A stretch of 64,000 bases of DNA from an uncultured Gemmatimonadales bacterium (GTDB lineage: Bacteria > Gemmatimonadota > Gemmatimonadetes > Gemmatimonadales > Gemmatimonadaceae): positions 128,001-192,000 of the forward strand of contig CAWBZV010000003.1 in assembly GCA_963793305.1 (NCBI GenBank), read 5' to 3'. Position numbers and translations under genes: made by a program. Below the pieces are notes generated by a model, which saw only the letters and a list, made by a program, of their open reading frames with translations, did no database searches and had not been told where the DNA came from. Below are positions 30,635 to 43,883 of the stretch, one piece after another (the first letter of the stretch is position 1; every line of letters starts with the position of its first letter).

Positions 30635-31553
30635 ATGGATCCGCTATCAGAACGTCGTCTCTCTTCTCAAACCACGCAGCTACCTGTCCGCGGGCTTCGA
30701 CGCCGGCGGAAAGTGGTCGGTCCAGTTCGCCAGGCACGACGGGTTCATCAAGTGCTATGCGGTGGTGAGGGGATGGTGCTGGCTCGCGGTTGACGGCGTT
30801 CCCGATCCGGTGCGCCTCGACGCCGGCGACTGCTTCCTCCTCGCGAGCGGGCGGCCGTTTCGCCTGGCGGCAGACCTGACGGCAACACCCGTTGACGCCG
30901 AGGCGATTTTTTCAGCCGCCCGATACGGTGGCGTCGCCGTGTGCAATGGTGGAGGCGAATTCTTTCTCGTCGGGAGCCGCTTCGCCGTGAGCGGCCATCA
31001 CGCGGGCATGCTCCTCGGCGTGCTGCCGCCGATCGTGCACATCAGGAACGAATGGGACCAAGCCGCGCTGCGCTGGTCGGTCGAGCGCATGATGCACGAG
31101 CTGCGGGATCCTCGCCCGGGCGGGTTTCTGGTCGCCGAGCATCTCGCGCACATGATGCTGTTGCTCGCGTTGCGGCTGCAGGTCACCGAAGGGCGCGTGG
31201 GCTGGCTCTTCGCGCTCGCCGACAAGCAAATCGGTGCGGCGATCGGCGCCATTCACGACGACCCAGGGCACCCTTGGACTCTGGCCGAGTTGGCGAAACG
31301 CGCCTTCATGTCGCGATCGACGTTTGCGCTGAAGTTCAAGGCGATGGTCGGGACGTCGCCGATGGAGTACCTCACGCAATGGCGCATGCTTCGCGCTGGC
31401 GACCGTCTGACAACCTCCCGCGATTCGATCTCGCTGGTCGCCGCATCACTCGGTTACGAATCCGAGAGCGCCTTCAGCACGGCGTTTAAGCGCGTCATGG
31501 GCTGCTCCCCCCGGCGCTACGCAAATCGCCCGAATCCCGTCGCTGTCGCTTGA
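30635..31553 (+). CDS. AraC family regulator (cupin_6 plus HTH), divergent from the SDR
   Basis: C-terminal WTLAELA...MSRSTFA...PMEYLTQWRM...GYESESAFSTAFKR. Removing one A at GAACGTC (30650) gives the canonical start MDPLSDVVSLL from ATG 30635. Confidence 0.9.
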
Positions 31554-31562
31554 CTTCGGTGT

Positions 31563-32399
31563 TTGTTCGGGCTATCGTTACGGCCGCCCGAGAGTCGGGG
31601 CGTGGTGTCATTACACGAAGAGGGGGCCGACGTGCGCGGCTGGCGGGCGGAGGCAGTGCGGCCGCGAGGCGTGGCGGAAAACGCGGCCGCGTTGGCCGAC
31701 CGCGGTCTTATCGTCGCGATGCGATGCCACGACCGCGGAGCGTTGGCCGAGTTCTACCGGCGGTTCCGCCCGGTGCTCGTTGTCGCCGCGCGGCGATTGA
31801 CCGCGGATGCGGTCGACGGCGAGGCAATCGTGGAGGATGTGTTGACGGATGCGGCGGTGCACTTCGTCTCGACGACGACACCGGTTCCTGGCTCGGTGGC
31901 CGGGTACCTGGTTCGCATGCTGCGCAACCGCGTACTCAACGCGTTGCGCGCGCGCAATCGTCACGACACCCGCATCGCCGACTCGTCCTGCATGTCGGAG
32001 CACGCCGAGCGAACGAGCGCCGGCGCTGATCACGAGGTCGAGCGGCAGACGACGCCGGCGCCGGCCGTCGCGCGCCTGGCCGCGGCGCTCGATGCGGCGA
32101 TGAGCGAGGACGACCGCATGTTGGCCACGTGGCTCGCGAATGGCATCGCGCAGCAGCAGATCGCCGATTGGGTCGGCGTGAGCTATCCGGCGCTGTGCAA
32201 GCGCGTCAGTCGTCTCCGCGCACGGCTGCGTACCGTCGCCGAGCGTCACGTGAGCGCGTCGAGCACTGACGATCGTCGCGCGCTGGCGCCGTTCCTGAAG
32301 CTCGAAGAGCTCGGCGCAGCCGAGCTCAGGCCAACCGACCAGTCGAGCAGCGCGGAACGCGGTGCATCGACGCGCGGCGGAGCCGCGCCTCTGGTATGA
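31563..32399 (+). CDS. ECF-type sigma-70 factor with C-terminal extension
   Basis: Region 2 (DRGALAEFYRRFRPVL..AARRL...EAIVEDVL...GYLVRMLRNRVLNALR) and region 4 HTH (MSEDDRML...QQQIADWVGVSYPALCKRVSRLRARL). True start uncertain. Confidence 0.8.
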   Translation: MFGLSLRPPESRGVVSLHEEGADVRGWRAEAVRPRGVAENAAALADRGLIVAMRCHDRGALAEFYRRFRPVLVVAARRLTADAVDGEAIVEDVLTDAAVHFVSTTTPVPGSVAGYLVRMLRNRVLNALRARNRHDTRIADSSCMSEHAERTSAGADHEVERQTTPAPAVARLAAALDAAMSEDDRMLATWLANGIAQQQIADWVGVSYPALCKRVSRLRARLRTVAERHVSASSTDDRRALAPFLKLEELGAAELRPTDQSSSAERGASTRGGAAPLV

Positions 32400-33124
32400 G
32401 CGACTCTATGAGCGACTCTCAGGGCGAGCTGTTCGAGCGGAGCTCACACGAGCCCGAGCACGACCCGTCGGACGCGCTGATCGACCTCGTCGGCAAGCGC
32501 GTTGTTCCGGCATTGGGCTCGCGGCGATTCTGGGATTGGTACACGCGCGCGTGTCGCGCCGGACAAACCGCCGACGAACGGCGTGAGACCGAGTCCGGCG
32601 TCACGGCATTTCTCGATCGCGTGGGCGCGCGACTCGCGACGCTCGACGCACCACTCGTTCGCGTTGCGGGCGCGGCGCCGCGACATGCGGCACTCATAGT
32701 AGGTCCCGTCTCGCAAGTGTTGACGCCGGCGCTCGCCTCCGGCGCCGCGCCACTCGTCGAGGCCGGCGTGGCCGCGGGCGCCGGCCGCGAATTGTGGGAC
32801 GAAGTGACGGACGCGTGGGTGGCGGTGCCGAACGACTTGCCGGCGCGACGCTACGTCGCGATGCGCGTGAGCGGCGATAGCATGACGCCGCTGCTCCACT
32901 CCGACGATGTCGTGCTCATCGACCTTGACAACAACGATACAACCGCGGGTTCGATCATCGTCGCGCGCAACAACGACGATGGCTACGTGGTGAAACAGGT
33001 CACCGCCACCGATGGTTTCGACATCGTTCTCGGTTCACTCAACCCCGCGTATGCACCGATGCGCATCACATCTTCGAGTGGAGTAGTACTCGGTCGCGTC
33101 GTGCTGCGATGGTGCGAGCACTGA
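32396..33124 (+). CDS. S24 (LexA/UmuD/CI-type) autopeptidase with a non-HTH N-terminal domain
   Basis: Cleavage-site-like GVAAGAG, catalytic Ser in MRVSGDSMTP, catalytic Lys in YVVKQV, LGSLNPAY and VLGRVV tail. ATGA overlap with the sigma stop. Confidence 0.85.
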   Translation: MSDSMSDSQGELFERSSHEPEHDPSDALIDLVGKRVVPALGSRRFWDWYTRACRAGQTADERRETESGVTAFLDRVGARLATLDAPLVRVAGAAPRHAALIVGPVSQVLTPALASGAAPLVEAGVAAGAGRELWDEVTDAWVAVPNDLPARRYVAMRVSGDSMTPLLHSDDVVLIDLDNNDTTAGSIIVARNNDDGYVVKQVTATDGFDIVLGSLNPAYAPMRITSSSGVVLGRVVLRWCEH

Positions 33125-33215
33125 GATATTTCTCTTTGGCACCTGCAAACCCTGACACCACGTGCGGCATCTCATCGTACGAACAGCAGGAACCCCAAGA
33201 CAACAGGGAGATGAG

Positions 33216-33600
33216 ATGCGGAAGTGGTATTCGGGCGCTGCCCTCGCGGTGGCGCTCATGGGAGCGGTCGCGTTTACGAACGCCTCGCGCACGAACGAAA
33301 CGGCGCCGATCGAAGGCCGCGTGATGGACTTGGAAGGTCTCATCATTCAGCGCGCCCACGTGCGCGTCACCGATGAGACGACGGGCGCGTCGACCGAGAC
33401 GCTGAGTCAGATGAATGGCCGATTCGTGATCGCGAATCTCGAGCCGTCGCACACGTACGCGGTCGATGTCCGCGCAATTGGCTTCGTGCCGTACCACGCG
33501 TCGGGAATTCACCCGACATCAGCGGGTGCTGCGCTGGCCGACGTTCTCGATGGAGCCGATCCCGCCGCTGTCGTCGACGCTCCGCGTAGCCGCTCGTTAG
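33216..33600 (+). CDS. Small secreted protein with carboxypeptidase-regulatory-like (prealbumin-fold) domain (frameshift at 33542)
   Basis: RBS AGGGAG; signal peptide MRKWYSGAALAVALMGAVA; IEGRVMD..G....AHVRV...TG......NGRFVIANLEP..TYAVDVRAIGF. Correcting GACGTTC gives ...LADVSMEPIPPLSSTLRVAAR* ending at 33600. Confidence 0.75.
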
Positions 33601-34613
33601 ACGAGCGGCATCACTTGCTCGGAGAACCGCTCCATCTCTTCGCGCTGCGGGCTGGATTGGAGCAACAGGAGATCAACGCCGGCGGCCGCGAATGCGCGGA
33701 TCCGCTCGGCCACGATCTCCGGCGTGCCGACGAGCTCGGCCCGCAGGCCGCGGTTGGAGACCGAGTAGTCCTCGAGACTGACGGCTTGCTCGAGCTTCGT
33801 GTTGGCGAGCCAGTCCTGGTAGTTGCCGTAACCAGGAGTGCCGGGCGAGACGTTGGTGATACGTGACTTCTCTCGCTCGGCCTCTTCCAGCGTGTCGCGC
33901 ACGATCGCGTAGGCCGCCATACCGTAGGTCATTGGCACCTTGCCGGTGGCGGCACGACGCTGGCGCATGTCGGCGATCTTTGGCGCGATGCGCTCCGGTG
34001 GGTCGCCGTGCATCACGTAGGCGTCGCACCGTGACGAGATGAGCGTCTTCGCCGCCTCGGATTCGCCGCCGGCGTAAATCACGGGAGCGCGGACCGGCTT
34101 TGGCGCCAAGACGGTCTCGTCGACAGAGTAATACTTGCCCTTGTGCGTGAACGTCTCGTTGCACCACGCGCCCTGAATGACCGCGAGCCACTCGTCGGTG
34201 CGCGCGTAGCGATCGTCGTGCTGCTCGAAGTGCACGCCGTAGCGCCGCGCTTCGTCGGCCCACCAGCTGGAGACGACGTTGAGCGACAGGCGCCCGTTCG
34301 AAATGCGATCGATATTCGCGGCCTGCTTGGCGAGAATCGCCGGATTGTGGAACGTCGGCCGCACCGCGACCATGAGCTCGAGCTTCTCGGTGACGGCCGC
34401 GAGCGCGGCAGCCGTGGACCACGCATCGAGCGCCGGCGCGTAGATGCCCTTGATGTCGTTCAGAAACAACTCGGCGATCAGCGTCAGATCGTAGCCGATC
34501 TGCTCGCTGCGCCGCGCCAAGTCGCGCGAGTACTCCCACGTGGCGGCCATCTGTTCGTCGGGGACATTGCGAAGCCAGCCCCCGAACACGGGCATCCAAT
34601 AGCCGTAGCGCAT
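33597..34613 (-). CDS. LLM-class (luciferase-like) flavin monooxygenase, SfnG/SsuD-like
   Basis: MRYGYWMPVFGGW, GYDLTLIAE, LDAWSTAAALAAVT, VAVRP, IDRISNGRLSLNVVS, IYAGGES, LVGTPE. Confidence 0.9.
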   Translation of the reverse strand: MRYGYWMPVFGGWLRNVPDEQMAATWEYSRDLARRSEQIGYDLTLIAELFLNDIKGIYAPALDAWSTAAALAAVTEKLELMVAVRPTFHNPAILAKQAANIDRISNGRLSLNVVSSWWADEARRYGVHFEQHDDRYARTDEWLAVIQGAWCNETFTHKGKYYSVDETVLAPKPVRAPVIYAGGESEAAKTLISSRCDAYVMHGDPPERIAPKIADMRQRRAATGKVPMTYGMAAYAIVRDTLEEAEREKSRITNVSPGTPGYGNYQDWLANTKLEQAVSLEDYSVSNRGLRAELVGTPEIVAERIRAFAAAGVDLLLLQSSPQREEMERFSEQVMPLV

Positions 34614-38435: not shown

Positions 38436-41400
38436 ATGTCCCCCCGTCGATGGCTGTGCGCGCTACTCACGCTCGTCGCGTCAATCAGCGCCATAGCCAC
38501 ACTCGCTCCACGAGCGTCTGCTCAACAAGAAGGAGTGATTGGCAAACCCAGGCCATTCATCTGCACGCCGGGGCAACCCGGATGCCACACGTACCCGCCG
38601 TCGGTGACAATCAGCCCGGGCACCAGCTCGTACTTCTCGCCGACGCTCGCGGTGACCGTGACGTTCTGCGACAGCGTCTCCTTCAGCGCCGACACGATCT
38701 ACCTGAACAACGTGAATAAAACGAGCACGTTGACCGAGACGACGCCGTCGGGAACGGGTCAGTGCGCCGTGCAACGCAAGTACACGGGCAACATCACGCT
38801 GGTCGCGGGTTCGAACACGCTCAGAGCGGTCGCCTACAATGACTTCTCGGGGAACCTCACGAGCACCAGTGGCTCAGTGACGTATACGTATACCGTCCCG
38901 ACTTATAGCGTGACCGTCACGCCGACGGTGACCCAGGAGAACGTGTCGCCCGGACAAAACGGGACGCTGACGTTCACCGTGAAGAATACCGGGAACGTGA
39001 CCAATTCATTCACGTTTACGCCGGATTGCTCAGGGGTCGTCGTCGCATCGTGCGGCACGCCATCGCCCGCGTCCGCATCGAATCTCGCATCCGGCGGCAC
39101 GGTCAGCGTCACGGAGCCCTTCACGGTGAGCAACGCCGCCGGTTCATCCGGATCGGTTGGCATCTCGGCGGCCGGGAGCGGCGGCGCGAACGGAGCGGGC
39201 ACCACCACGATCACGACCCTCCCCGCGGCCGGCCTCGACGTCGTCGACGCGAATCCCGGTGCCAGCTTCAATCGCACGAACTGTCTCACCGTGCGTGTCG
39301 CCCCGCGCTCGGCGTTCGAGTGCGGCGATTTGCGCATCACGCACCCAATGGGCTCCATACGCACCTACGGCAAGCTGCGGACGCCGACGCTGATCTACAA
39401 TTGGCGATTCGCGACGCCCGCGCCGAACATTGGCGCGCTGCTGACGATCCCCGCGGGCTCGTCGTCGCTCGACAGCGTCAACGGCACGCTCTACATCTGG
39501 CCGCATAACCAACCATCCATGTCGCAAGTCGCGATGACGGGCTGGTGGTCCGGGGCCGAGTGGAACCACGCGTTGACGCAAGTGACGCGGCGCATTCAGC
39601 TGTCGTGGGGCGGGTACATTTCGGCCAGCGGCTACTACGATTTTGCTTTTGCGACGAAGCGCCACTACGGCACCGTGCTCGCCCAGGACTCCTCAGTCGG
39701 CCATTTCGTATTCGTGAACCGGTGGACGAGCCCGTTCGGCGCCGGCTGGTGGCTCGCCGGCTACGAGTCGATCCAGTTCTACTCCGACGGGATCTCGTGG
39801 ATCGGCGGTGACGGCAGCACGCAATGGTACACACGGCCCGGCAACACCGGGTCCGTCTGGTACCCCCAGACGTATGTGGGCGAGCGCGATTCGATCACGC
39901 AGAACGGCAGCCAGTACGTGCGCTCCGCCGCGCACGGCGCCCAAGTCGTCTTCAACTCGCTCGGCCAGCACGTACAGACGATCGATCGCCTGGGGCACGC
40001 GACCACCTTCGCCGTGCATACGGGTGCCAGCCGCCTCGACACGCTGACCGTGCCGACGCCGACGGGGAAAGTCTCCTACTACTTCTTCTACAGGGGCGAC
40101 GCTGGCGTCGCCGACACGACACTCGTAGAAGTGGAAGCGCCAGCCGGACTGACCATATTCGCCGACACGCTAGAAGCGACCGGCGCGACGAAAAGCTTCT
40201 CGAGCATCGCCGACATTGACGGCTTCCATACGTACTTCTCCTACGATCCGGACGGCGGGGGCCAGACGCGCATCCTGACGCGCATCGACCGGCTGGGCAC
40301 CACGACGTTGTTCAGCTTCGGGATGGGTGGTGAAAATCTCGGATTCACGACCATCCAGATGCAGCAAGGGGCTGGACACGATATCGAGCACACGTTCTCG
40401 ACAGAGAACGGGTTCGGGCAGGCGGCGCCGTGGATCCCCGAGTCGCAAACGCACTCGGCGAACCCCGACTCCGTCTCCGTACAAATCAACGGTCCGCGCT
40501 TCAACGCTATGGATGGCGATTCGACAGACTACACGATCGTCTGGATCGACCGATGGTGGCAGCCGGATTCCATCCAAGACGCGCACAGGAACATGACGCG
40601 CCTGACGCGAGCCAACGCCACCTACCCGGCGGCCGTGACGCGCACGCAGTACCCGGACGGCCGGATCGTCGGCGCCACGTATGACGCACGCGGGAACCCC
40701 GCGAGTGTCACGGATTCGAGCATGCAGGTCGCCGGCGCCTACCCGACGACGACCTACCAGTTCGATGGCCGCTGGGACTTCGACACGCTGACCACCTTAC
40801 CACTCGGCGAGACCATTCATGACAGCCTGGATGCGCTCGGGAATGTCGCCTGGCATCAGCTGGGCATGTCCACCGCGCATCGTACGGTGTTCAACTACGC
40901 GGACCCATGCGGACTGGTGCAGCACGTGACCGAGCCGGGCAGCACGCAACCATGGGCGTACCAGTACGATGGCACTCTCTGCAATCTGTCCATCCGGACC
41001 ACGCCCAACGTCTACTACACCGACATTGCCACCGATGCGCTGGGACGTGTCACGAGCGTTCGGACTGCCATCGACTCCAACGATAAGAACCAGCCTCCGA
41101 ACAATCCCTCGGTGGAATCCCATTACTACGATTTAATGGATCGTGACACGCTGACCACCACGACGGGTCCGGCGGAGGCGACGATCCCGGGATCCACCGC
41201 CCAGACGATCTCGGTCGAACGCAAGTACGACTATGAGGGGAATGTGGTCGCGGTGAACCGGACCGCGAGTCCGGACAGCAATCAGATCGGGACACTCCAC
41301 ACGGCGACCGTCTACGACCGCGCGTACCGGCCCATCGCCGACACGGCCGTGAACGGGGCCGTGACAACGCGAAAGTTCGATCCGGCGGGCAACCTCGATA

Positions 41401-43883
41401 CGCTGATTACGCGACGCGGATTCACGACCGTGAGCGTCTACGACGCGCTCAACCGGCTGGCGAGCAAGATCGTGCAGAGCTACACCGCGGCGAAGGACAG
41501 CATTGGCATTCCGGCCGATGTCGTGGAGGGAGCCGGCTTCGATATGCCGGCTCACCAGGCGACGTCGTACGGCGTGAACGGATACACGCCATACATCTCG
41601 CTCCCGTATGGCGGTCAAACGGTGCACGGCGATACCGTGACGTTCCAATACGATCCCGTCGGGCGGATCATCGAAGCCGACAATGTCAACGCGAAGATCA
41701 CCCGGCAGTATTACCCAAACGGCACCCTGCAGTCAGAGACGCAACGCGTCCGCACGCTGCCGGACTCCGGCGCGGTCGGCAGCTTTACCAAACACGTCTA
41801 CACGATCGGCTATCACTACGATCGCGATGGTCGCCGCGACTCGCTGTACTACCCCACGCAACTCGCCACCGCGAGTCAGAACGGTCCCGTTGGCACCACG
41901 CAATCGTACGCGTACAACGACACAACGGGATGGCTGGCATCGACCACCGACGCGGCGGGGCTGACGGCCACATTCACGTATACGGGGCGAGGCGATCTCG
42001 CGCTGGTCCAATACCCGTTGTGGCAATACCAGCAGGCCCGGAAATATGACAACGACGGGAACATCACGTCGGACACGGTCGACCAGTATGGGTCCTCCCA
42101 CACAGCCTATCGGGCGGCCACGTTCGCCTACGACGGGCGCGATAAGCTGCTGTACAGCGCCAACGCGGTCAATCTCCGGGATACGCTGCGGGCGTACTAC
42201 ACGGGTCTCGGGTACGTCGCGCGTGACACCTCGCGCGATTACCACACGGGGACACTCGCCATCGTTGGCGAAGACTTCCGGTACGACGCGCTCGGCAACC
42301 GGATGGTCGACACGACGTTCAGCAGCTCGGTCGAGCAGCTCGGTTCCGATAGCGGCTACACCATCAAAGCCTGGGATTATCAGGCTGGTACCGGTTGGTT
42401 GACGAGCGCCGGCGACTACGCGAATTCGGCCGTCGAGACGTACCAATACGACCAATCGGGCAATACGACGTTCGACTACGTCAGTGGATATAATCTCGTC
42501 GGGAATGTCACGCCGCAGATCCACGACCGCGCATCGTTTTATGATGCCGAGGAGCGTCTGGTCGAAGCCGACTATCGAACGATCACGGACGCGTACGACC
42601 CGATCTTCTCACTGACGCGGGCGGATGAAGTGTCCCGCTACGACGCGCTCGGCCGCCGCGTCCTGGTGCACGCCAGTCGCACCTGCGGTCCGTACCAGGC
42701 CATCGGCGTGCAACCGTTGTACCGGCCGGACGACTGCCGACGCAGCTTCGTGCGCCGAACCGTGTATGACGGGAACCAGGAGCTCGCGGAGTTCATGGCG
42801 CGCGACTCGATTCCGTTGACTGCGGAAATGGATTCCGGCGTCGTGCGGGACAGCGTCGACCGGAATGGTGGAGAGGCGACGGTTGACAACAACCCGTTTT
42901 TTGGTCAGGTCATATACACCCACGCCCTCGGCGTCGACCAGCCGATCGATGTGATCCGCCTCAACTGGGCGAATCGGACCGACAGCATAGGAAACAGCCT
43001 GGCGTACTACGTCTTTCCACCGCTGGTCTTCGCACCACTCTGGAACGTCCACGGTCGCAACGATTACAACTTGGGCGGATCAGTCGTCAGCGGCGCGATC
43101 TCCACCAACTACTGCTTCACGGTGCAGAGCCAGAATCGGTGTCCCAACTTCCCCATCGAGCCGGGGTTCGCGGCGTACAACAACGTTCCGACCGGCGCCG
43201 CCGTCGAGTGGTTCGGCACGTTGCTCGAAGACAAATTCGACCAAACGCTCACGCAATACCGGCGCGCGCGGGCCTACGATCCGGTGACGGGACGATTCAC
43301 TCAGCCCGATCCCATCGGTCTCGCCGGTGGCATTAACGACTATGGGTTCGCGAGTGGCGATCCGGTCAACTACTCGGACCCGTTTGGGCTGTGCCCGCCC
43401 GCAGACAAGAATTACAGCACGTGTAAACACGGATCCCCGGAGTGGGCGGAGGGGGCAAATCGCACACAGACCAATGTTGCCCACACCTCCGTGAATCCCG
43501 TAGTATTCGTGGGCGTTTCGGCGGCACTAAGTCCGGGCGCCGGTGTTGTCGCCTCGGCCGGGATCTACGCGGATCGATATGGTTCCGGTTTTTATTTCAC
43601 GCTCGGCTTCAGCGTCGGGCTCAACATTGGACTAGGTGGCGAGGTGGGTGGGTCTACGTCGGCGACGGCGATGGGCGGCGATTCGGAGGGAGGATGCGCC
43701 GGTCGTCTCATTTCAGGGTGTGCAACTGAAAACAGCGCCGGTCACACGTACTCAGCCAGCGCGGGTTTGGGCTTCCCATACACAGGCGCTGCGGTGTCGA
43801 CGACCACATTTCTTTCGCCCACGGCGCCGCCGGTCTGCGCGGGCTCGTCCAAGCCACAATGCCAACGGATGCCCGGACCGTGA
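38436..43883 (+). CDS. Rhs/YD-repeat polymorphic toxin with Sec signal peptide and Ig-like N-terminal domains
   Basis: Signal peptide (..LAPRASA/QQ), Thr-rich Ig-like repeats (FTVKNTGN), SPFGAGWWLAG, many YD repeats, core RARAYDPVTGRFTQPDPIGLAGGIN.YGF..GDPVNYSDPFGL, then a ~163-aa variable tip. Confidence 0.93.
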   Translation: MSPRRWLCALLTLVASISAIATLAPRASAQQEGVIGKPRPFICTPGQPGCHTYPPSVTISPGTSSYFSPTLAVTVTFCDSVSFSADTIYLNNVNKTSTLTETTPSGTGQCAVQRKYTGNITLVAGSNTLRAVAYNDFSGNLTSTSGSVTYTYTVPTYSVTVTPTVTQENVSPGQNGTLTFTVKNTGNVTNSFTFTPDCSGVVVASCGTPSPASASNLASGGTVSVTEPFTVSNAAGSSGSVGISAAGSGGANGAGTTTITTLPAAGLDVVDANPGASFNRTNCLTVRVAPRSAFECGDLRITHPMGSIRTYGKLRTPTLIYNWRFATPAPNIGALLTIPAGSSSLDSVNGTLYIWPHNQPSMSQVAMTGWWSGAEWNHALTQVTRRIQLSWGGYISASGYYDFAFATKRHYGTVLAQDSSVGHFVFVNRWTSPFGAGWWLAGYESIQFYSDGISWIGGDGSTQWYTRPGNTGSVWYPQTYVGERDSITQNGSQYVRSAAHGAQVVFNSLGQHVQTIDRLGHATTFAVHTGASRLDTLTVPTPTGKVSYYFFYRGDAGVADTTLVEVEAPAGLTIFADTLEATGATKSFSSIADIDGFHTYFSYDPDGGGQTRILTRIDRLGTTTLFSFGMGGENLGFTTIQMQQGAGHDIEHTFSTENGFGQAAPWIPESQTHSANPDSVSVQINGPRFNAMDGDSTDYTIVWIDRWWQPDSIQDAHRNMTRLTRANATYPAAVTRTQYPDGRIVGATYDARGNPASVTDSSMQVAGAYPTTTYQFDGRWDFDTLTTLPLGETIHDSLDALGNVAWHQLGMSTAHRTVFNYADPCGLVQHVTEPGSTQPWAYQYDGTLCNLSIRTTPNVYYTDIATDALGRVTSVRTAIDSNDKNQPPNNPSVESHYYDLMDRDTLTTTTGPAEATIPGSTAQTISVERKYDYEGNVVAVNRTASPDSNQIGTLHTATVYDRAYRPIADTAVNGAVTTRKFDPAGNLDTLITRRGFTTVSVYDALNRLASKIVQSYTAAKDSIGIPADVVEGAGFDMPAHQATSYGVNGYTPYISLPYGGQTVHGDTVTFQYDPVGRIIEADNVNAKITRQYYPNGTLQSETQRVRTLPDSGAVGSFTKHVYTIGYHYDRDGRRDSLYYPTQLATASQNGPVGTTQSYAYNDTTGWLASTTDAAGLTATFTYTGRGDLALVQYPLWQYQQARKYDNDGNITSDTVDQYGSSHTAYRAATFAYDGRDKLLYSANAVNLRDTLRAYYTGLGYVARDTSRDYHTGTLAIVGEDFRYDALGNRMVDTTFSSSVEQLGSDSGYTIKAWDYQAGTGWLTSAGDYANSAVETYQYDQSGNTTFDYVSGYNLVGNVTPQIHDRASFYDAEERLVEADYRTITDAYDPIFSLTRADEVSRYDALGRRVLVHASRTCGPYQAIGVQPLYRPDDCRRSFVRRTVYDGNQELAEFMARDSIPLTAEMDSGVVRDSVDRNGGEATVDNNPFFGQVIYTHALGVDQPIDVIRLNWANRTDSIGNSLAYYVFPPLVFAPLWNVHGRNDYNLGGSVVSGAISTNYCFTVQSQNRCPNFPIEPGFAAYNNVPTGAAVEWFGTLLEDKFDQTLTQYRRARAYDPVTGRFTQPDPIGLAGGINDYGFASGDPVNYSDPFGLCPPADKNYSTCKHGSPEWAEGANRTQTNVAHTSVNPVVFVGVSAALSPGAGVVASAGIYADRYGSGFYFTLGFSVGLNIGLGGEVGGSTSATAMGGDSEGGCAGRLISGCATENSAGHTYSASAGLGFPYTGAAVSTTTFLSPTAPPVCAGSSKPQCQRMPGP

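Follow-up and report, generated by a model that had tools for sequence, protein, structure and literature searches.

Genes and features of the locus

The stretch of DNA described here (the window) is 64,000 nt long, covers positions 128,001 to 192,000 of contig CAWBZV010000003.1 of an uncultured Gemmatimonadales bacterium (host genome G000, 92% complete), and contains a gene for an extracytoplasmic function (ECF) sigma factor that overlaps a gene for a protein with a LexA-type S24 autopeptidase domain. In window positions, which are used throughout, the pair and the elements in front of it are arranged as follows.

31550..31578, + strand: putative housekeeping-type promoter leading the operon (-35 TTGACT 31550-31555, 17-bp spacer, -10 TATCGT 31573-31578)
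31555..31570, + strand: direct repeat TTCGG-N6-TTCGG, period 11, between the -35 and -10; likely host LexA (SOS) box
31593..31610, + strand: motif 2, AGTCGG-N6-GTGTCA; predicted autoregulatory sigma promoter with a predicted start site near 31619
31632..32399, + strand: ECF-type sigma factor, 255 aa, by TIGR02937 (above cutoff) and family alignment
32396..32743, + strand: head of the S24 protein, residues 1-116; soluble, family-specific, predicted sigma-binding module
32765..32779, + strand: predicted autocleavage site G-V-A-A127/G128, aligned with VAAG of host LexA1
32750..33124, + strand: S24 autopeptidase domain, with Ser162 at 32879-32881, Lys200 at 32993-32995 and a family-specific C-terminal RWCxH

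The sigma open reading frame (ORF; 31563-32399) matches TIGR02937 at 45.3 bits against a cutoff of 42.9, and the Pfam scan finds Sigma70_r2 and no region-3 match, consistent with the sigma2 plus sigma4 arrangement lacking sigma3 that defines ECF (group 4) factors. Because the TTG at 31563 sits inside the promoter repeat it was rejected as the start codon, and GTG 31632 is the likely start, giving 255 aa behind a ribosome binding site (RBS) at 31620-31626. The protein consists of sigma2, a ~30-aa linker, sigma4, a conserved helical extension (about residues 201-228) and a variable tail, so that in the family alignment ~55 aa extend beyond sigma4, ~28 of them conserved. The closest solved structure is CnrH (E 1.5e-8), and the sigma aligns end to end with CnrH and SigH, placing C189, K190 and N103 at the positions of RpoE R171, S172 and N84, the last by way of the SigH alignment. 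Sigma4 plus the extension also matches NarL-type helix-turn-helix (HTH) chains, with E about 1e-4. A term search of PMC7826278, covering its main text and part of one supplement, found no ECF group with a LexA/S24 partner of this kind.

The second gene (32396-33124, 242 aa) overlaps the sigma ORF by the ATGA at 32396-32399. Peptidase_S24 (PF00717) covers residues 119-236 with 65.5 bits (cutoff 23.3; E 4.5e-18), and the window protein carries A127-G128, S162 and K200. The scissile Gly and the catalytic Ser and Lys are kept in 81/81 family proteins and Ala precedes the Gly in 80 of them (Ser-Gly once); the three residues before the Gly are VAA in 58, IAA in 16, AAA in 6 and IAS in 1. The predicted cleavage site aligns with VAAG of host LexA1 and the Ser-Lys dyad is in LexA register, LexA itself being cut at Ala84-Gly85 (PMC9578287). 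In profile comparisons PDB chains of LexA, lambda CI and UmuD are matched, while the protein falls far below the cutoffs of the LexA model TIGR00498 (24.7 vs 110.95) and the UmuD model NF007621 (27 bits vs 110). An identity as the host LexA was rejected, since G000 encodes two separate canonical HTH-LexA paralogues (C5:1433070 region, L001; C2:789366 region, L002). Variants of the family include P0220 and P0161, in which the head is retained but the cleavage site and dyad are gone; P0030, a 400-aa protein with two S24 domains; and, in genome G008, a second, divergent S24-family gene near the cassette without a head match (L025:3087-3707, - strand; L028:1456-2280, - strand).

These features bear on an original prediction, made from the window alone, that the S24 protein is a self-cleaving anti-sigma factor. 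Its description of the gene pair, the ATGA overlap and the complete S24 module held, as did the statement that umuC is absent nearby: the ORFs listed for 24-42 kb include none that looks umuC-like, with 8 ORFs scanned against Pfam. The sigma gene was correctly recognized, with its start now moved from TTG 31563 to GTG 31632 and its C-terminal extension lengthened from ~45 to ~55 aa. Taken with the conservation, promoter and fusion data below, the organization of the locus inclines us, by a little, toward reading the pair as a two-lock DNA-damage switch in which the S24 protein would be a RecA*-cleavable anti-sigma factor.

Conservation of the sigma–S24 pair

Searching at the protein level identified 333 relatives in 8000 scored candidates, the source names including Gemmatimonadaceae, and when one genome was scanned per species 126 loci were obtained, the best 80 of which were kept for analysis. 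Of these 80, 79 are titled Gemmatimonadota and one Thermoleophilia. A family sigma gene lies directly upstream of the S24 gene in 73 of the 80, that is, in every locus with upstream DNA (73/73), and the other 7 sequences end at or just before the S24 start; sigma stop and S24 start overlap by 4-17 nt in most loci. In a 401-genome sample of the phylum, for which 6 candidates were scored per genome so that counts are lower bounds, the sigma family occurs in at least 23 genomes and the S24 family in at least 21, distributed over two families of one order. Every S24-family place in that sample adjoins a sigma-family place (21/21), and the 25 sigma places divide into 21 with an S24 neighbor, 2 at a contig edge inside the head and 2 without S24. 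Neither the 80 loci nor the 401-genome sample yielded an S24-family place without an adjacent sigma. The sigma–S24 pair is a conserved Gemmatimonadales cassette, and the overlap suggests that the two genes are co-transcribed, which together with their adjacency is the arrangement by which class I anti-sigmas are encoded beside their ECF partners.

The sole locus titled outside Gemmatimonadota (L058, a Thermoleophilia bin) has a sigma that groups with Gemmatimonadaceae copies, which points to transfer or to mis-binning; its S24 gene is followed by a further ECF gene that has a motif-2 site.

A gene of ~180-200 aa precedes sigma in 51/63 loci with enough upstream DNA, the sequence being too short in 17/80. 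It lies under the SOS box and leads the cassette (for example L045:1341-1892), carries the motif ENxETSAIGRAL, matches PHROG 11717 (function unknown) and resembles PF27148 Slr1353_N, a dsRNA-binding-like fold (language-model features, 0.96); the Slr1353-like protein possibly binds nucleic acid. That it might be a Rad52-like annealing protein is our assumption, which no search confirmed, and a PDB sequence search with it gave no lead. The gene is absent from the window, where an AraC gene stands instead, and a tblastn search of G000 was negative.

A probable LexA box at the operon promoter

The repeat TTCGG-N6-TTCGG lies between a TTG -35 and a TA-N3-T -10 in front of the first gene of the cassette. 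It is exact in 45/46 regions before the ~180-200-aa upstream gene and in 11/13 where sigma comes first, and the TTG...TA-N3-T frame is kept around it (56 aligned sites). When G000 was scanned with the matrix, the top ranks were the cassette site, dnaE2, a TIGR03916-like radical SAM gene and, in front of imuA, an SplB-like gene, the SplB-like ORF having been identified by reading and not by family scan. Boxes at recA and ruvB score lower; two boxes lie upstream of lexA1, one upstream of uvrA and none upstream of lexA2. In five genomes in which neither the sigma nor the S24 family was found there are 26 exact matches to the repeat and 0 to the reversed pattern, and 14 of the 26 adjoin lexA, SplB-like, imuA-like, ruvB, uvrB, gyrB, Ku/LigD or TIGR03916-like genes. 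Recognition of the repeat by the sigma or the S24 protein was rejected on account of these five genomes. In another genome a single box is common to the cassette and a divergent SplB-like radical SAM gene (L242, G316:C3).

The period of 11 is that of the alphaproteobacterial LexA box, GTTC-N7-GTTC (PMC8565304). The cassette has in front of it a putative operator that overlaps its promoter and is shared with lexA, recA and repair genes. We consider TTCGG-N6-TTCGG the likely host LexA (SOS) box of Gemmatimonadales, presumably bound by LexA1, and the sigma–S24 operon a likely SOS gene, with DNA damage turning the pair on. Because the box precedes the operon, the link to DNA damage is supported independently of the protease domain.

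A predicted compact promoter in front of the sigma gene

A second element, motif 2, reads TGT(C/A)(A/G/C)C-N6-G(T/C)(G/A)TC(T/A) and occurs in 50/65 sigma-upstream regions, 21/71 S24-downstream regions and 7/899 background windows; its matrix was trained on the regions in which it was counted, and sigma sequences were not used for picking sites. The window copy at 31593-31610 is a weaker match (12.5 bits). Upstream and downstream copies at the same locus agree at 0.85 compared with 0.66 after permutation, a difference inflated by relatedness among the 16 loci. Information is confined to the stretch from the motif's left half to about +6, and at the +1 that its right half would predict, purine conservation is 91%.

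Covariation between promoter and sigma, analyzed at the 47 loci that offer a site together with a full sigma, singles out three columns, each ranking 1 of 209 for its base. The K190 column best predicts the fourth base of the left half, with V or I at this position accompanying A in 16/16 and K, R or Q accompanying C in 30/30; the C189 column best predicts the sixth base of the left half; and the N103 column best predicts the -13 base, Asp occurring with -13C/-12G in 6/6. The corresponding RpoE residues S172, R171 and N84 read -34, -31 and -12/-13, respectively (10.1101/2020.06.23.168245). K190 and N103 emerged from the scan before any comparison with the published ECF code was made. By this bioinformatic evidence, which comprises few independent changes, motif 2 would be a bipartite promoter read by sigma4 and sigma2 residues in the manner of ECF promoters.

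Its geometry departs from theirs. The bases read by the R171 and N84 equivalents are 9 bp apart in motif 2 compared with 19 in the published numbering, and the two halves lie 10 bp closer than the 16-18-bp spacer of ECF promoters would place them. In the standard holoenzyme sigma4 reads an element 16-18 bp upstream of the -10. We predict that motif 2 is the sigma's own promoter, with -35-like and -10-like halves about one helical turn too close. An interpretation of motif 2 as an integron attC site was rejected because it is too short and has the wrong core.

Since motif 2 also admits a reading as an imperfect inverted repeat with 6 bp between its arms, it could instead be a pseudo-palindromic operator for the S24 protein, acting alone or as a dimer with two sigmas, so that RecA-triggered cleavage would derepress the genes and the system would amount to a split or non-HTH analogue of LexA or CI. 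The dimerization of S24 domains in LexA (PMC9578287) and the NarL-type match of sigma4 plus extension are in keeping with such a repressor, which we nonetheless regard as very unlikely. Motif 2 is consistently asymmetric and points toward the genes downstream of it, the sigma2 residue N103, whose equivalent reads -12/-13 in ECF promoters, covaries with the right half of the motif, and the purine at the expected +1 is conserved; the head moreover contains no HTH by sequence (below), and the SOS box, occurring in genomes without a detected cassette, is not the site of the S24 protein.

The head domain and its fusions to sigma

Three helices are predicted by pattern in the head, and the first 116 residues of the S24 protein are soluble. 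As the original prediction held, the N-terminus has neither an HTH nor a transmembrane segment: 0/71 family N-terminal domains match any Pfam HTH family at E<=0.1, hhalign of the head against the N-terminal domain of host LexA1 returns a probability of 0.03%, and the top 19-residue hydropathy is 1.36 in the window protein (P0001) and at most 1.41 across the 71 domains. The head gave no match in Pfam, the PDB (sequence search) or Atlas. In a search of 1.84 billion representatives its profile matches 155 clusters; 90 of the 150 listed are at least 190 aa long, and 86 of these carry the family S24 domain, the remaining 4 being one sigma–head fusion, two apparent frameshifts and one degenerate copy. 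The head is found essentially only in the sigma–S24 family. Six proteins of 120-148 aa (P0208, P0211, P0216, P0221, P0239 and P0245) are head-only, with related N-termini.

In three proteins, P0266, P0160 and P0168, a whole sigma is fused directly to the head and the protein ends there, without the protease. Members of the set (P0160, P0168, P0266) are 72-73% identical to the first, and one is full length at 322 aa; a metagenome scan for their loci returned 2 ordinary pairs and no fusion context. A different architecture follows the S24 gene at L013:1987-2508, where a sigma2 half is joined to two head-like helices without sigma4 (a weak match, 21 bits), and the gene at L099:6604-7095 is, by its start, a similar sigma2-half–head gene; such a protein could serve in feedback or as a decoy. 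The fusions suggest that head and sigma are in contact, and they fit a co-activating role of the head at least as well as an inhibitory one.

The fate of the head after cleavage is relevant to this distinction. A cut at Ala127-Gly128 is predicted to leave a head ending GVAA in the window protein and VAA, IAA or AAA in 80/81 proteins. The cleaved form of RseA, RseA(1-108), also ends GVAA, and its removal by ClpXP frees sigmaE (PMC8138137, PMC7593790), so by analogy the predicted end of the head fragment resembles a ClpX degradation signal. The main rival to the anti-sigma reading is a UmuD-like scheme in which the cleaved head remains on sigma and acts as a co-activator, shifting sigma4 to suit the compact promoter, the dimerizing S24 domain blocking the complex until the RecA-triggered cut. 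The protease-less fusions would on that view be active constitutively, the unusual promoter geometry would call for just such a remodeling partner, and the dissimilarity of the head to known anti-sigma domains would be expected. We judge this unlikely, given that the head fragment of nearly all family members would carry the ClpX-signal-like end, and that the S24 gene occupies the overlapping +1 position that is the usual anti-sigma slot. In genome G031, in addition, a paralogous sigma without an S24 gene lies directly before an Ig-like gene (our label, with no Pfam match) and a long RHS-like gene, although the two other copies in that genome could supply the head.

The S24 protein might also be a co-expressed SOS effector that does not regulate sigma, acting for instance on or with the Slr1353-like protein or on another substrate. 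Such a role could explain why the upstream gene accompanies the pair in most informative loci, why two sigma-family genes occur without S24, and why the mirror-tree signal described below is not specific to sigma. It seems to us very improbable: the upstream gene is missing from 12/63 informative loci and from G000 by tblastn while the sigma–S24 overlap is kept, no S24-family place was found apart from a sigma, and fusions of the head to sigma domains come in two different architectures.

Putative targets and downstream genes

Sites unlinked to the cassette give an indication of what the sigma might transcribe. In five genomes of one clade the clade-specific motif occurs 15 times compared with 1 for the reversed pattern, 10 at the cassette and 5 unlinked, the latter preceding two short ORFs and three Ser/Thr kinase genes. 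Among five genomes of a second clade, 7/8 unlinked sites lie 52-58 nt before an RBS and start codon, and the putative targets encode either a hydrophobic protein of 36 or 62 aa or an Ig-like secreted protein with an RHS gene behind it. The 62-aa protein (L196, L197, L199, L200, L203) has no Pfam match and recurs as an unlinked target in one clade. In 13 other loci a member of the Ig-like family lies near the S24 gene or immediately follows it, with RHS genes coming next in the three that were scanned. At the top threshold, a pooled motif-2 scan of G000 gave 27 matches compared with 12 for the reversed control, and with a genus-specific pattern there were 10 matches and 2 reversed; in five genomes without a detected cassette the merged pattern gave 15 compared with 40 reversed. 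The predicted regulon is small and lineage-specific, comprising Ig-like/RHS genes and genes for small membrane or secreted proteins. The M1 peptidase genes located downstream in one clade were rejected as targets, having no motif-2 match.

The gene following the pair in the window is a genus-level neighbor.

33216..33600, + strand: downstream gene, carboxypeptidase-regulatory-like (PF13620), with a signal peptide

Relatives of this gene in L029 and L030 are 127 aa long. In the window the frame (33216-33866) is thrown out by one extra base near 33544 and runs into an opposite-strand monooxygenase gene; the extra base is absent from contigs of RNA runs (shares 0.05-0.08, contigs only, patchy cover), and L029 has about 145 extra bases at this junction. 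No forward motif-2 match of 8 bits or more precedes the gene in the window. A genus-conserved block at 33140-33180, TGACAC-N6-CGGCATCTCATCGTAC, does precede it and can be read either as a minus-strand motif-2 site facing the S24 gene or as a plus-strand ECF promoter of canonical spacing. Some 5 kb downstream, at 38436-43883 (+ strand), a gene encodes an 1815-aa RHS/YD-repeat-like protein with a signal peptide and weak Pfam matches only; by eye, no motif-2 site was seen upstream of it.

A proposed two-lock switch

The reading we lean toward can be set out as a sequence of steps. Cleavage of LexA would let the operon be transcribed, so that sigma and its partner are made together, and the S24 protein would keep sigma inactive through its helical head. 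RecA bound to single-stranded DNA (RecA-ssDNA) would then trigger self-cleavage at Ala127-Gly128. Because cleavage alone would not remove the head from sigma, a downstream protease step is needed, and ClpXP might provide it by destroying the head via its new VAA end. The freed sigma would transcribe its own gene from motif 2, a positive feedback, and drive a small regulon from compact promoters, their -35 and -10 being 10 bp nearer each other than in canonical ones; once repair has removed the RecA filaments, fresh uncleaved S24 protein would close the loop. The contact between sigma and head, the inhibition, the dependence on RecA, the ClpXP step and promoter function are what we infer from the genes, alignments and sites described above. 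As a whole the original prediction is partly supported. Of the refuting outcomes that it named, none of those open to sequence analysis was observed: the pair is conserved, the head is no HTH by sequence, and the cleavage site and dyad are retained. Its proposal that DNA damage leads to transcriptional activation rather than derepression appears half right, activation being retained while the operon itself likely needs LexA derepression first.

Several observations weigh against this reading. As regards the promoter, the covariation depends on 2, 2 and 6 independent changes, and sign tests on independent pairs are without power; the base that K190 follows lies two positions, not three, upstream of the one read by R171; and the F175 equivalent ranked 32. 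Regulon evidence is uneven, with no clear motif-2 regulon in G000, where only the autoregulatory site at 31593-31610 is clear, and with 13 matches compared with 12 reversed in the second clade, a count that is no evidence because the reversed control is about as frequent. Of the 25 sigma-family places, 2 are without an S24 neighbor (L240, G031:C104; L241, G250:C12). As for the head, hhalign against 22 zf-HC2 class I anti-sigma domains from related genomes gives 0.56%, no similarity, and if the head did nothing but inhibit, fusions lacking a protease would be locked in the off state. Nor is the degron match an independent one, because AA before Gly is also typical of LexA-type cleavage sites. 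Finally, the mirror-tree correlation is higher between sigma and head (r 0.88) than between sigma and protease domain (0.79), and this support is not specific because a rate-matched control, the C-terminal half of the upstream gene, scores 0.88 as well.

Most far-reaching is the claim that a sigma70-family factor acts on a compact promoter, one helical turn shorter than any described ECF promoter, that it is switched by a soluble self-cleaving RecA-sensing partner, and that it governs a second-tier SOS regulon of secreted/RHS-type proteins; for us this claim stands evenly balanced between true and false. The compact promoter conflicts with standard holoenzyme geometry and, if true, would imply a different placement of sigma4 on RNA polymerase. 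The analysis also supplies a candidate LexA box and SOS regulon for Gemmatimonadales, and a candidate for a compact two-gene DNA-damage switch.

Comparison with known systems

In the openly accessible full texts searched, we found no paper describing a sigma factor paired with an S24 protein, a LexA box from Gemmatimonadota or an ECF promoter with a short spacer; term searches of the accessible portions of PMC7826278, PMC7739468 and PMC7406223 likewise gave none of the three. By sequence the cassette does not qualify as LexA/CI or as UmuD on their defining features, nor can it be recognized as a class I anti-sigma factor. LexA, lambda CI, HdiR and PrtR share with the window protein the S24 domain, the Ala-Gly site, the Ser-Lys dyad and the SOS context, and differ in having an N-terminal HTH, which the window protein lacks, being instead obligately coupled to a sigma gene. 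UmuD is likewise an HTH-less S24 protein activated by autocleavage. It has a short N-terminal arm and umuC as its partner, whereas the cassette protein has a conserved N-terminal domain (about 100 aa, in a head of about 115 aa), its partner is a sigma, and its recurring neighbors are sigma and the Slr1353-like gene, with no short arm and no adjacent umuC.

Among anti-sigma systems, the class I anti-sigma domain is a three-helix bundle plus helix 4. E. coli RseA–sigmaE resembles the cassette in having the partner at +1 of an autoregulated ECF gene and in a product ending GVAA, as RseA(1-108) does. The S24 protein differs from RseA in being soluble and without a transmembrane segment, in carrying its own protease and in a head unlike the class I domain by profile; and the signal, envelope stress for RseA–sigmaE, would be RecA-ssDNA for the cassette. 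RsgI and, as proposed, DdvA likewise use autoproteolysis within an anti-sigma factor as an activation step (PMC10328401; PMC11506125). They are described there as membrane proteins cut outside the cytoplasm, non-enzymatically or by a CHAT domain, with RseP-type proteolysis needed and no use of S24 or RecA. Canonical ECF promoters, with their 16-18-bp spacer, have in common with motif 2 the -35/-10-like halves and the R171/S172/N84 code, and differ in the 19 bp, instead of 9, between the R171- and N84-read bases. The promoter layout has its closest counterpart in SigN (ZpdN) of B. subtilis pBS32, where a LexA-repressed housekeeping promoter and a sigma-dependent autoregulatory promoter precede the sigma gene (10.1101/624585). 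SigN belongs to a different phylum, the accessible text of that report mentions no S24 partner, and motif 2 of the cassette is a compact ECF-type element.

To our knowledge, known LexA-type autoproteases act as repressors or as UmuD. A LexA-type module that appears to be wired to a sigma factor would be a new route from DNA damage to positive, self-amplifying transcription, without a membrane or a separate protease cascade. In sum, the cassette would be LexA-like at its input, RseA–sigmaE-like at the release of sigma, and SigN-like in its promoter layout.

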